From assembly GCA_963765495.1 (NCBI GenBank), contig CAVXWP010000009.1:809240-873239 (forward strand): a stretch of DNA of 64,000 nucleotides, written 5' to 3'. A program made the position numbers and the translations under genes. Source of the DNA: Blastocatellia bacterium. GTDB lineage: Bacteria > Acidobacteriota > Blastocatellia > UBA7656. Positions 23,100 to 26,791 of this stretch are shown in pieces (position 1 is the stretch's first letter; each line of letters begins with the position of its first letter). Under the pieces are notes generated by a model. The model did not search any database. It saw nothing but the letters and a program-made list of their open reading frames with translations, and had not been told where the DNA came from.

Positions 23100-23131
23100 A
23101 GGCGCTCTTCAAGGGGCGCCTTTCTTTTTTT
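23100..23131 (+). terminator. Rho-independent terminator (AGGCGC-tcttcaaggg-GCGCCT + TTCTTTTTTT)
   Basis: Hairpin plus long T-run just after the FecR-like gene. Confidence 0.75.
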
Positions 23132-23139
23132 CTGTCCGG

Positions 23140-24543
23140 CTCACCTGCTTTTAACCATCCGTAGCGAGAAGTCCCCTGCTCTTTAGGCGGGGGATGAATC
23201 GCGGCGGTACTAACTGAGATTTGGTACTGCTATGAACGTGTTTCGTGCTATAATGATGACGGCTCAAATCAGCACTTGCGATGCCAATCTGAGCCTCACC
23301 GATGCCGACTATAGGAGAGTCAACATGGCTGATGGAATCATAACACAAAGAGCCTACCGCTACAGAATCTATCCCTCTCACGCTCAAATCACACGACTTG
23401 AACAGACGCTTTCCTACTGTGCGGAGTTGTATAATGCGGGCCTTCAAGAAAGAAGAGACGCTTACCGGATAGCTCGAAAGTGTATCTCTTACAAAGAGCA
23501 GCAAAACCAGCTTCCAGAAATCAAAGCTGTTCGACCTGAGTGGAACACGGTGCATTCTCAGGTATTGCAGGATGTTCTCAAGCGACTTGATAAGGCTTTC
23601 GATGCGTTCTTTCGCAGAGTCAGAAGCAAGCAAGGCAAAGCCGGATTTCCGAGATTCCGCGCCCGCTCTCGCTATAATAGCTTCACCTATCCTCAGTCTG
23701 GATTTGCAATAGAGAATGGCAAGCTTAGACTTTCTAAAATCGGCCGCATCAAAATCAAACTCCATCGCCCGATTGAGGGTGCTATCAAAGGATTGACTAT
23801 CACGCGCAGTTCCACGGGCAAATGGTTTGCCTGCTTCACAGTAGAACAGGTAATCAATCCAGAGCCGCATAAGGGCAAGGCTGTAGGCGTGGATGTAGGT
23901 ATAAAGACCTACTGCACATTGTCTGACGGAACTGAGATTGATAACCCGAAGTTCTTTAGAGTGGAGGAAAAGAACCTTGCCAAAGCACAGCGCAAACTCT
24001 CTACCTTCAATAAAGGTTCTGATGAGTATCGGAAGCAGCGCAAGGTAGTAGCTCGCATTCATGAGCGAATCACAAATAAGCGAAAAGACTTCGCGCATCA
24101 ACTCTCTCATTACTTCGCTATTACTTATGCACTGATAATCTTTGAGAAGTTGAATATCAGAGGCATGGTGAAAAACCATTGCCTCGCCAAATCCATTCAG
24201 GATGCCAGTTGGAATCAGACTATTCAGTATACGACCTACAAGGCAGCATGGGCCGGGGGTATGTCGCTGAGAGTCAATCCAGCAGGCACAAGTAATACGA
24301 CTCACTGCTGCAAGGCGAAGGTTGATATTACGTTGGCAGATCGTGTAATCCATTGTCCTCAGTGTCATCGAACTATAGGCAGAGATGAAAATGCATCTCT
24401 GAATATTTTGAGTCTGGGATTACAGACTCTTGGCCTTAGCGCCATAGAAGCCGCTTCCTTTGGGTAGCGGAATAGTCACTCAACCGCAAATAGGGATAAA
24501 ATTGGCCTCGGAATGGAAACCGGAAGGCGGGTCCGGAACCTTT
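23140..24543 (+). mobile_element. IS200/IS605-family element of the single-ORF (IS1341-like, tnpB only) type; ends approximate
   Basis: Contains tnpB only, no tnpA; bounded by an upstream terminator and the start of the next gene; exact LE/RE not determined. Confidence 0.55.
23325..24467 (+). CDS. tnpB: TnpB (OrfB) RNA-guided endonuclease-like transposon protein, IS605 family
   Basis: N-terminus RAYRYRIYPSHAQITRLEQTLSYCAELYN (OrfB_IS605), RuvC-I GVDVGIKTYCTLSDG, C-terminal zinc ribbon CPQCHRTIGRDENASLNI; RBS AGGAGAG. Confidence 0.9.
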   Translation: MADGIITQRAYRYRIYPSHAQITRLEQTLSYCAELYNAGLQERRDAYRIARKCISYKEQQNQLPEIKAVRPEWNTVHSQVLQDVLKRLDKAFDAFFRRVRSKQGKAGFPRFRARSRYNSFTYPQSGFAIENGKLRLSKIGRIKIKLHRPIEGAIKGLTITRSSTGKWFACFTVEQVINPEPHKGKAVGVDVGIKTYCTLSDGTEIDNPKFFRVEEKNLAKAQRKLSTFNKGSDEYRKQRKVVARIHERITNKRKDFAHQLSHYFAITYALIIFEKLNIRGMVKNHCLAKSIQDASWNQTIQYTTYKAAWAGGMSLRVNPAGTSNTTHCCKAKVDITLADRVIHCPQCHRTIGRDENASLNILSLGLQTLGLSAIEAASFG

Positions 24544-25020
24544 ATGGCCTACATCGTAGACGGCAACAACGTAATGGGTCAAACGCCGGGCTGGCATCGC
24601 GACAAATCCGGGGCGCGCCGAGGGCTGCTTGAGCAACTGGCCGCTTTCGCGCATGTCAAAAAGGCTCGCGTAACGGCCGTATTTGACGGCGCTCCTGACG
24701 AGGGCGTGCCGGAGGGGTCTGCCTATCACGGCGTCAAAGTGCTTTACGCTAAGAGGGGATCGGATGCCGACACTCGAATCGAACAACTCGTAGAGTCGGC
24801 CCGTGATCGGCGCGGGCTGATCGTCGTCACATCGGATCGACGGCTTGCGCACGCGATTCGCTCGCTCGGCGCATCCGTCCTGCGGTCGGGAGAGTTCAGG
24901 AATTTGATCGAAGAGGTGATTGCCGGTCGCCCGCTCGCCGAAGACGGAGAGCAGTTCGATCTCGGAGATATGAATGAGTGGCTCAGATATTTCGGCGCTT
25001 CGCCCGAAGACGATGTGTGA
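24544..25020 (+). CDS. NYN/PIN-like domain protein, YacP (Rae1)-like
   Basis: MAYIVDGNNVMGQ N-terminus and about 158 aa length match YacP-like NYN proteins. Confidence 0.65.
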   Translation: MAYIVDGNNVMGQTPGWHRDKSGARRGLLEQLAAFAHVKKARVTAVFDGAPDEGVPEGSAYHGVKVLYAKRGSDADTRIEQLVESARDRRGLIVVTSDRRLAHAIRSLGASVLRSGEFRNLIEEVIAGRPLAEDGEQFDLGDMNEWLRYFGASPEDDV

Positions 25021-25023
25021 TGG

Positions 25024-25116
25024 GTGATATGTGATACGTGATACGTGATTCGTTGTCTTGATTGCCATCTCCGGTCACGCATCACGAATCACGTATCACT
25101 TACCCTGTATCACGAA
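25024..25116. repeat. Heptamer-repeat hairpin element: arms (GTGATAY)4 and TCACGCA-TCACGAA-TCACGTA-TCAC
   Basis: Inverted tandem heptamers starting at the stop codon of the NYN gene. Confidence 0.7.
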
Positions 25117-25129
25117 GGAGGTAATAGGC

Positions 25130-26791
25130 ATGGCTTACGAACGGCCTCGAGCTTACCGCGATGTAAGGGTAGGCGAATTGCTCACGCTGCTTGCGCGAGA
25201 CTACCCGCAGAACGAGGCGCTGATTTATCCCGACCGCGAGCTTAGATACGATTTCAGTCAGCTTGAATGGTTCGCCCGCCAGATAGCCAGAGGGCTGTTG
25301 AGCATCGGTGTAGAGCGGGGCGACCGCGTGGCCCTGTGGGCGCATAACATCCCGGAATGGGTCGTCTTGCAATTCGCCCTCGCAAAGATCGGAGCCATAC
25401 TCGTTACCGTAAATACCAGCCTCCGCGCTGCGGAAATCGAATACCTGCTCAGGCAATCGGAGACCAGCACGCTCATCACCGTGGCGGGCTTTCGCGATCT
25501 TGATTATGTAAAGACCATCTACGAGATCATCCCCGAATTGCGCGGGGCGAAAGAGGGCGCGCTCCATTCAATGAAGTTCCCCTATCTTCGCAACATAATT
25601 TATATCGGCGATGAGCATCCGGGTGGGATGCTCCGTTACGACTCTTTGCTCGACCGTTCGGGGCGGGTGAGCGATGATCAGCTAAACGCCCACTCGGATA
25701 TGCAGGACCTCGACGACGTGATAAACATGCAGTACACCTCGGGCACAACGGGCTTTCCAAAAGGGGTTATGCTGACGCATCGCAACATAGTAAACAACGG
25801 CTACTGGCTGGCCGAAGGGCTTGCGCTCACTTCAAGCGACAGGTTGTGCGTGCCCGTGCCTTTCTTTCATTGCTTCGGCTGTGTGATCGGAGTGCTGGGT
25901 GCTTACACTCACGCGGCTGCGATGATTCCGCTTGAATACTTCGACCCGTTGCGAGTGCTTCAATACGTGGAACGCGAAAGATGTACAGCCCTTTACGGGG
26001 TGCCGACCATGTTCATAGCCGAGCTTGAACAACTCGATTATCACTGTTTCGATATGTCGAGTTTGAGGACGGGCATAATGGCGGGCTCGCTGTGTCCCGA
26101 ATCGCTCATGCGAAAAGTGATGGAAAAGATGAACCTGACCGAGATGACCATCGCCTATGGATTGACCGAAGCCTCGCCCGGAATAACGCACACGCCGCGA
26201 GATGACAGCATCGAGTTGCGTACGCAGACCGTAGGCCGCGTGATGCCCGAAATGGAAGTCAAAATCATCGACCCGGCCACGGGCGAAGAATGCCTGCCCG
26301 GCAAATCCGGTGAGTTGTGCTGTCGCGGTTACAACGTGATGAAGGGGTATTACAACAACAAACAGGCCACAAGTGAGGCGATTGATGAAGAAGGATGGCT
26401 GCACACGGGCGATCAGGCCAGTATGGATGAGCGGGGGTATGTCAGGATCACCGGGCGTATAAAAGACCTGATAATTCGCGGCGGCGAAAACATCGCGCCA
26501 AAAGAGATTGAAGACCTGTTGCGCACGCATCCGAAGATCGCCGATGCCTATGTTTATGGTGTGCCCGATGAACGCTACGGCGAAGAGGTCGCCGTGGCTG
26601 TCCGCCTAAAGCCCGGCGAGACGGCAACCCCGGATGAAATCCGCGCATATTGCGAAGGCCGCATAGCCAAATTCAAATATCCGCGCCACATCCGTTTCGT
26701 CGAATCATTCCCCATGACGGCTTCTGGCAAGGTGCAGAAGTTCAAGCTGAGAGAAATGCATGCTCGGGGGCCGGGGGCCGGGGACCAGTAG
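25130..26791 (+). CDS. AMP-dependent synthetase/ligase (acyl-CoA synthetase family)
   Basis: [15 protein letters not shown]-binding motif, [13 protein letters not shown], and C-terminal lysine motif [10 protein letters not shown]; RBS GAAGGAGG. Confidence 0.9.

Follow-up and report, generated by a model that had tools for sequence, protein, structure and literature searches.

A tnpB-only IS200/IS605 element with mapped ends and a predicted omega-RNA scaffold in an acidobacterium-like genome

Our analysis of a 64 kb stretch of DNA (the window) indicated that positions 23156-24479 very likely represent a complete IS200/IS605 element of the tnpB-only form (IS1341 type, by architecture), with both ends intact. 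The element is 1324 bp long. Its bounds were derived by comparison with relatives, because the window contains no second copy of its DNA or protein. The relatives used for end mapping were 80 loci in GTDB genomes, 79 metagenome loci and nine contigs encoding the nearest proteins. A preliminary description of this DNA had placed the element at 23140-24543; the mapped ends are narrower and leave space for tnpB alone, and no Y1 transposase is present in the window, consistent with the solo, IS1341-like TnpB proposed there. That description had also considered a single copy with no identifiable ends. Both ends were identified, and one copy is found in the window. The correct annotation for the locus is a mobile element, not a host gene. 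Coordinates of its features are listed in Table 1.

Table 1. Positions of the element's features in the window.
Feature	Position	Strand	Basis
TTAAC, likely TAM and insertion target	23151-23155	+	host DNA directly 5' of left end; boundary shared in relatives
Left end (LE) and tnpB leader	23156-23324	+	LE profile HMM, DNA fold, relatives
LE subterminal hairpin	23164-23202; inner stem 23171-23180 with 23186-23195	+	DNA fold, conservation
Candidate extended -10, TGCTATAAT	23246-23254	+	kept in L002
Leader hairpin, GGCTCA..TGAGCC	23261-23295	+	kept in L002; stem letters differ in L082, pairing kept
AGGAG	23313-23317	+	ahead of tnpB ATG
tnpB, 380 aa	23325-24467	+	Pfam domains, ISDra2 structure match, homologue alignment
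RuvC D190	23892-23894	+	aligned to ISDra2 D191
RuvC E274	24144-24146	+	aligned to ISDra2 E278
RuvC D354	24384-24386	+	aligned to ISDra2 D361
Putative zinc ligands	C328/C329 24306-24311; C344 24354-24356; C347 24363-24365	+	alignment
Predicted omega-RNA scaffold core and right end (RE)	24385-24479	+	covariation, independent covariance model
P-a	24410-24416 with 24423-24429	+	covarying helix
P-b	24431-24433 with 24442-24444	+	covarying helix
P-c	24451-24457 with 24464-24470	+	covarying helix
Pseudoknot, P-a loop with 3' tail	24419-24422 with 24473-24476	+	mutual-information scan, pair counts
Predicted guide, 16 nt, TCAACCGCAAATAGGG	24480-~24495	+	analogy with ISDra2; host DNA just 3' of RE
Antisense ORF, 405 aa, not a gene	23151-24368	-	no Pfam match; reverse frame of tnpB

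On its left the element is bordered by the terminator (23100-23131) of a FecR-like gene and on its right by a YacP-like NYN gene starting at 24544, whose promoter region it displaced. Pfam identified the upstream ORF as a FecR-domain protein and the downstream ORF as a YacP-like NYN protein, in agreement with the downstream neighbor named previously. The YacP ATG follows the tnpB stop by 76 nt, not 77 nt as first counted. The host genome is acidobacterium-like. The GC content of the element is ~47%, compared to 56-60% in the flanks, which suggests a recent arrival. The flanks read ...TTTTAAC and TCAACCG... and share no direct repeat. Neither terminal inverted repeats nor a target duplication is present, and subterminal hairpins at the LE and at the RE (24451-24470) are both kept across loci. 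Further downstream, between the YacP stop (25020) and the ATG of an acyl-CoA synthetase at 25131, positions 25012-25099 contain two inverted arrays of 7-nt units. Positions 25024-25053 carry ~4 repeats of GTGATAC, and 25075-25099 carry ~3.6 repeats of its complement (TCACGAA/GTATCAC). The two arrays make up a long imperfect palindrome, possibly serving as an operator array or as a terminator of unusual type.

The forward-strand frame is open from 23232 to 24467. Its likely start is the ATG at 23325 with AGGAG ahead of it, giving a protein one residue shorter than the 381 aa originally reported. Three Pfam domains were found, all above curated cut-offs: HTH_OrfB_IS605 (PF12323, E 8e-10), OrfB_IS605 (PF01385, E 6e-27) and Cas12f1-like_TNB (PF07282, E 1e-16). 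A search of solved structures aligned residues 5-372 to Deinococcus radiodurans ISDra2 TnpB (8h1j, 8bf8/8exa) with an E value of ~2e-62. Homologues of the protein number in the thousands, with a top identity of 76%. The catalytic residues of ISDra2 TnpB are D191, E278 and D361 (PMC10097598). This alignment was proposed in the preliminary description as a check for loss of the triad, and all three of D/E/D are kept. Across 17 aligned close homologues there is no variation at E274 or D354 and almost none at D190. Judged from the aligned sequences, the RuvC catalytic triad of the window TnpB is intact.

Three TnpB hallmarks had been ascribed to the protein. The N-terminal OrfB_IS605 domain and the RuvC residues are borne out by our analysis, whereas the third, a canonical CxxC...CxxC zinc ribbon, has to be revised to CC...CxxC. 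In the alignment, the first zinc half reads T-H-C328-C329 and the second C344-P-Q-C347, with the canonical first Cys changed to Thr. Four Cys remain as putative zinc ligands; those of ISDra2 are C331, C334, C351 and C354. The pattern TTxCC...HCPxC(H/Q) is found in nine sequences of the nearest subclade (the window protein, P0001, P0003-P0008 and P0012), and more distant relatives have the canonical CxxC...CxxC. Since CC...CxxC is common to the nearest relatives, the alignment indicates that it is a conserved trait of an acidobacterial subclade, not decay or damage. The DNA encoding this variant (24300-24368) lies directly upstream of the omega-RNA core.

A long ORF on the opposite strand was previously judged almost certainly spurious, and our results agree. 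Its codons lie exactly opposite those of tnpB, and it is open because tnpB contains one TTA codon and no CTA or TCA codons. It has no Pfam match, and in 67 homologues the same frame contains a median of 9 stops at varying places. The antisense ORF results from codon usage and should not be called in annotation.

The position of the LE is defined by where similarity among relatives begins. Similarity starts at TTAAC in L002, L003, L064, L083/84, L101 and L104, and at TTATC in L005-L008, L012, L059, L091, L095, L098 and L100. One of these two motifs is located directly 5' of the LE in ~18 related loci, and DNA further upstream is unrelated. The LE profile HMM matches 23152-23203 with an E value of 6e-13; the LE and RE profiles each have a single match in the window. 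About 12 nt inside the boundary is a hairpin of the form AGAAGnCCCC..GGGGATGAAT, common to bacterial and archaeal relatives. Sites matching TTAWC are not depleted in the window (198, compared to 193 expected). The candidate -10 box and the leader hairpin (23246-23295) may provide a promoter plus a translational control hairpin. The same family is abundant in Methanothrix and Methanocrinis (L015-L081, L109-L169), with 47-57% protein identity and the same LE hairpin, RE and pseudoknot. Several copies are present per genome there, and a TTATAG-like motif is located 5' of the LE. The occurrence of methanogen and bacterial copies indicates spread between domains.

The RE stops at ...GTAGTCAC (24479; ...AATAGTCAC), 12 nt past the TAG stop of tnpB. 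In ~80 loci, conservation is lost abruptly after GTAGTCAC. The region shared 3' of tnpB consists of ...TAGAAG, a hairpin and GGAG(N)2-3 TCAC, and from the next base onward the loci are unrelated. The segment 24260-24479 folds better than 200 of 200 shuffled sequences (z-score -3.5). RNAalifold analysis of 59 non-identical bacterial and archaeal sequences placed three helices within the final 75 nt; of their 17 pairs, 15 show compensatory changes. Pairing is observed in 96.2% of helix cells, compared to 73.4% after shuffling and 33-49% when partners were slid, and the helix covariation score is 0.547, compared to 0.06-0.09 for slid partners. A mutual-information scan also revealed covariation between the tail before the element end and the loop of the first helix. 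The resulting four-pair pseudoknot pairs in 100% of 236 cells (11-65% in slid controls), and one of its pairs occurs as AU 30, GC 22 and UA 7 times.

A covariance model (R1) was built from 58 relatives with the window sequence left out. It matches 24385-24479 end to end with 85.1 bits and an E value of 3e-17; the next match in the window scores 10 bits. A covariance search had been suggested in the preliminary description, together with the possibility that it would find no conserved structured RNA at the 3' end; a conserved, covarying structure is found. We predict that 24385-24479 is the omega-RNA scaffold, overlapping the RE and the terminal ~80 nt of tnpB. The omega-RNA had been expected at ~24400-24543. 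Its placement across the 3' end of tnpB and the RE is supported by a covarying structure and pseudoknot that end at the RE boundary. The 3' limit is not, as the structure ends at 24479, 24496-24543 is host DNA and the scaffold is mostly inside the ORF. Upstream of 24405 no runs of covarying pairs were found. An 8-bp hairpin at 24380-24401 was considered as a scaffold helix and dropped, since it is specific to the window. No omega-RNA family in Rfam matches the locus, where only chance matches were obtained, and a literature search with the right-end string returned unrelated primers only.

Transposase genes were searched by tblastn with IS200 and IS608 TnpA sequences. No tnpA is found in the element or elsewhere in the 64 kb window, as the preliminary description had stated, and the 169 nt between the LE and tnpB contain no transposase ORF. 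With the identical query, 18 related loci, among them L091, L092, L098, L100 and L104, proved to have a Y1 tnpA immediately 5' of tnpB, and autonomous partners therefore exist in the family. All five of these named loci also have an LE HMM match, which in L092, L098, L100 and L104 is located just upstream of tnpA at the TTAAC/TTATC boundary. Judged from these gene arrangements, the family includes autonomous members of IS605 type, and the window copy represents its tnpB-only form. Small ORFs beside tnpB in the nearest relatives were considered as tnpA and rejected, having no Pfam match. An IS607-type element was also rejected: the only gene is tnpB, and relatives carry a Y1 (IS200/IS608-like) tnpA, not a serine recombinase. 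Further TnpB-like genes are located close by on the nearest-relative contigs L083/L084 (823-2001) and L085/L086 (1977-3572). They include a second TnpB of 392 aa and a 531-aa protein with only a Cas12f1-like TNB domain, beside HNH and TIR genes. These surroundings resemble phage or defence islands.

Near-identical copies are absent from GTDB representatives (best 63%) and JGI metagenomes (best 64%), which leaves present-day mobility unproven. The exact protein is found elsewhere only on one 1384-bp Logan contig, L001, which corresponds to window positions 23126-24509 and extends 30 nt beyond the element at either end. No empty site was recovered. A fork between occupied and empty sites in the k=31 graph was considered for L001 and rejected. 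Contig L170 of run ERR11718635 ends at 23124, so that only base 23125 is uncovered. This is the pattern of a single-base bubble, whereas an empty-site fork predicts ends at 23155 for L170 and at 24507 for L001. The contigs of this run break at 23125 and 24510, each exactly 31 nt (k) outside the element ends, a symmetry that is unexplained. Recovering an empty site through the neighboring genes was likewise abandoned, as identity to the next YacP homologues reaches no more than 75%, too low for intergenic comparison.

These observations raise the question of whether the element is a stranded copy, structurally intact and immobile because its genome lacks a matching TnpA, with TnpB and its RNA idle or guarding one site until mutations accumulate. 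The single copy, the lack of tnpA in 64 kb and the lack of near-identical copies in GTDB representatives and JGI metagenomes are all in line with this. The RE also departs slightly from consensus: P-c carries one T-T mismatch, and the near-invariant GGAG before the tail is GGAA in the window, as in only 3 of the 59 sequences. However, the reading frame is uninterrupted and retains all catalytic residues, neither end has been lost, all helices and the pseudoknot are preserved, and the low GC content relative to the host points to recent arrival. In addition, a 64 kb window cannot prove that tnpA is absent genome-wide. We regard a stranded copy as rather unlikely, although it is the strongest of the alternatives considered.

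A second alternative concerns the covarying helices, which could be single-stranded DNA structures read by TnpA at the RE instead of an RNA scaffold. IS200/IS605 ends bear subterminal DNA hairpins bound by TnpA (PMC8612924). P-c sits at the place expected for such a hairpin, and a similar one is present at the LE. However, two more helices are located inside the coding region, and a loop-to-tail pseudoknot is not known to be required for TnpA recognition. The pseudoknot covaries perfectly beside the guide position, as expected from the guide architecture of omega-RNA and Cas12 (PMC10097598). This makes a DNA-only role of the helices very unlikely. The two roles are mutually compatible for P-c, which may act as a DNA hairpin and as part of the predicted omega-RNA.

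In ISDra2 the last ~16 nt of the RNA are the guide, copied from the flank (PMC8612924). By analogy with this and with the homing model (PMC10055086), the omega-RNA of the window element would run ~16 nt into the flank, to ~24495; both the length of this guide and its expression as RNA are predicted from ISDra2. TCAACCGCAAATAGGG is unique in the window, and conservation between loci is gone from 24480 on. The complex of TnpB and RNA would cut TTAAC followed by the flank sequence, a combination present only after excision of the element. Its target would be the empty donor joint left by Y1 TnpA excision, with the predicted joint ...CTGCTTTTAAC/TCAACCGCAAAT. Repair of the break from a sister copy would then retain the element. 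Movement to new TTAAC sites would depend on a full-length relative at another genomic location providing TnpA in trans. While the element is in place, GTCAC and not a TAM precedes the guide-matching DNA, and the element would therefore spare itself. Cleavage activity, the role in retention and mobilization in trans are all modeled on ISDra2.

The guide region lies within 64 nt upstream of the YacP start and domestication of solo tnpB genes has occurred on repeated occasions (PMC10705468), yet recruitment of this TnpB by the host to regulate YacP, as a nuclease-dead repressor (TldR-like) or another derivative, is extremely improbable, given that the D190/E274/D354 triad is intact and the C-terminus untruncated, that transposon ends and a target motif are present, that the neighbors of related copies are mutually unrelated, and that GTCAC instead of a TAM precedes the guide-matching DNA. 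TldR proteins are distinguished by a mutated triad or truncation, missing ends and a conserved partner gene, none of which is found for the window TnpB.

The family to which the element belongs is already well known and has thousands of members. The present locus is one further well-delimited copy, and it leaves knowledge of how TnpB elements work unchanged. For this locus the exact ends, the target motif (TTAAC/TTATC) and a predicted guide are now defined, together with an RNA model containing a covariation-supported pseudoknot.

Comparison with ISDra2 showed extensive similarities. The two TnpB proteins have the same domain order, align over their full length and share the D/E/D triad. In both elements the RNA, which is predicted for the window copy, spans the 3' end of tnpB and the RE, and a 5-nt T-rich target motif is located 5' of the LE. 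The ISDra2 omega-RNA has a 116-nt scaffold with four stems and a pseudoknot, followed by a 16-nt guide from the flank (PMC10097598, PMC8612924). Its pseudoknot pairs the tail at -5 to -3 with a loop ~100 nt upstream, and a UUUA tetraloop is located at -20 to -17 (PMC10097598, PMC8612924). The scaffold ends are alike, with GAAG, a hairpin with a UUUA/UUUG loop and GAG..UCA(A/C): the published ISDra2 RNA reads ...GAAG, hairpin, GAGGUUCAA and guide, and the window reads ...GAAG, hairpin, GGAAUAGUCAC. Both have a pseudoknot between the first-stem loop and the tail beside the guide. The P-a codons (LSLGLQTL) align to those of ISDra2 stem 1 and its pseudoknot loop (EALVAAGIS), which makes P-a and the pseudoknot equivalent in position to ISDra2 stem 1 with its pseudoknot. 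P-c is the counterpart of stem 4, and the architecture is of the same kind and shorter.

A number of differences from ISDra2 were also found. The window element lacks tnpA. Its target motif is TTAAC (TTATC in sister elements), compared to TTGAT, and its RE ends in GTCAC, compared to TTCAA. The window pseudoknot pairs the tail at -7 to -4 with a loop ~60 nt upstream, whereas that of ISDra2 involves -5 to -3 and a loop ~104 nt upstream. The long stem 3 of ISDra2 is reduced to the 3-bp hairpin P-b, no covariation-supported stem 2 was found, and the covariation-supported core is ~75 nt long, compared to 116 nt. The zinc ligands are CxxC...CxxC in ISDra2, and the putative ones of the window protein are CC...CxxC. 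We tentatively suggest, as a possibility that we consider somewhat doubtful, that the window subclade is a natural compact TnpB variant, with a core of ~75-95 nt, stem 3 shortened to a 3-bp hairpin, the pseudoknot at -7 to -4 and a CC...CxxC zinc motif with flanking His. If active, such a system would combine a TTAAC/TTATC motif with a naturally shorter guide scaffold. For mining TnpB as small genome editors, the compact RNA core may be of interest.

IS1341 itself is from a thermophilic Bacillus. Like the IS1341 group, the window element has tnpB as its sole gene, hairpins at the LE and RE, and no inverted repeats or target duplication; the label as applied to the window refers to architecture only. 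The full-length IS605-type relatives from Acidobacteriota metagenomes (such as L092, L098, L100 and L104) encode TnpB proteins 59-64% identical to that of the window and share its LE hairpin, TTAAC/TTATC boundary and RE/omega-RNA architecture. They carry a Y1 tnpA of ~130 aa between the LE and tnpB, whereas the window element has the 169-nt leader at this position.
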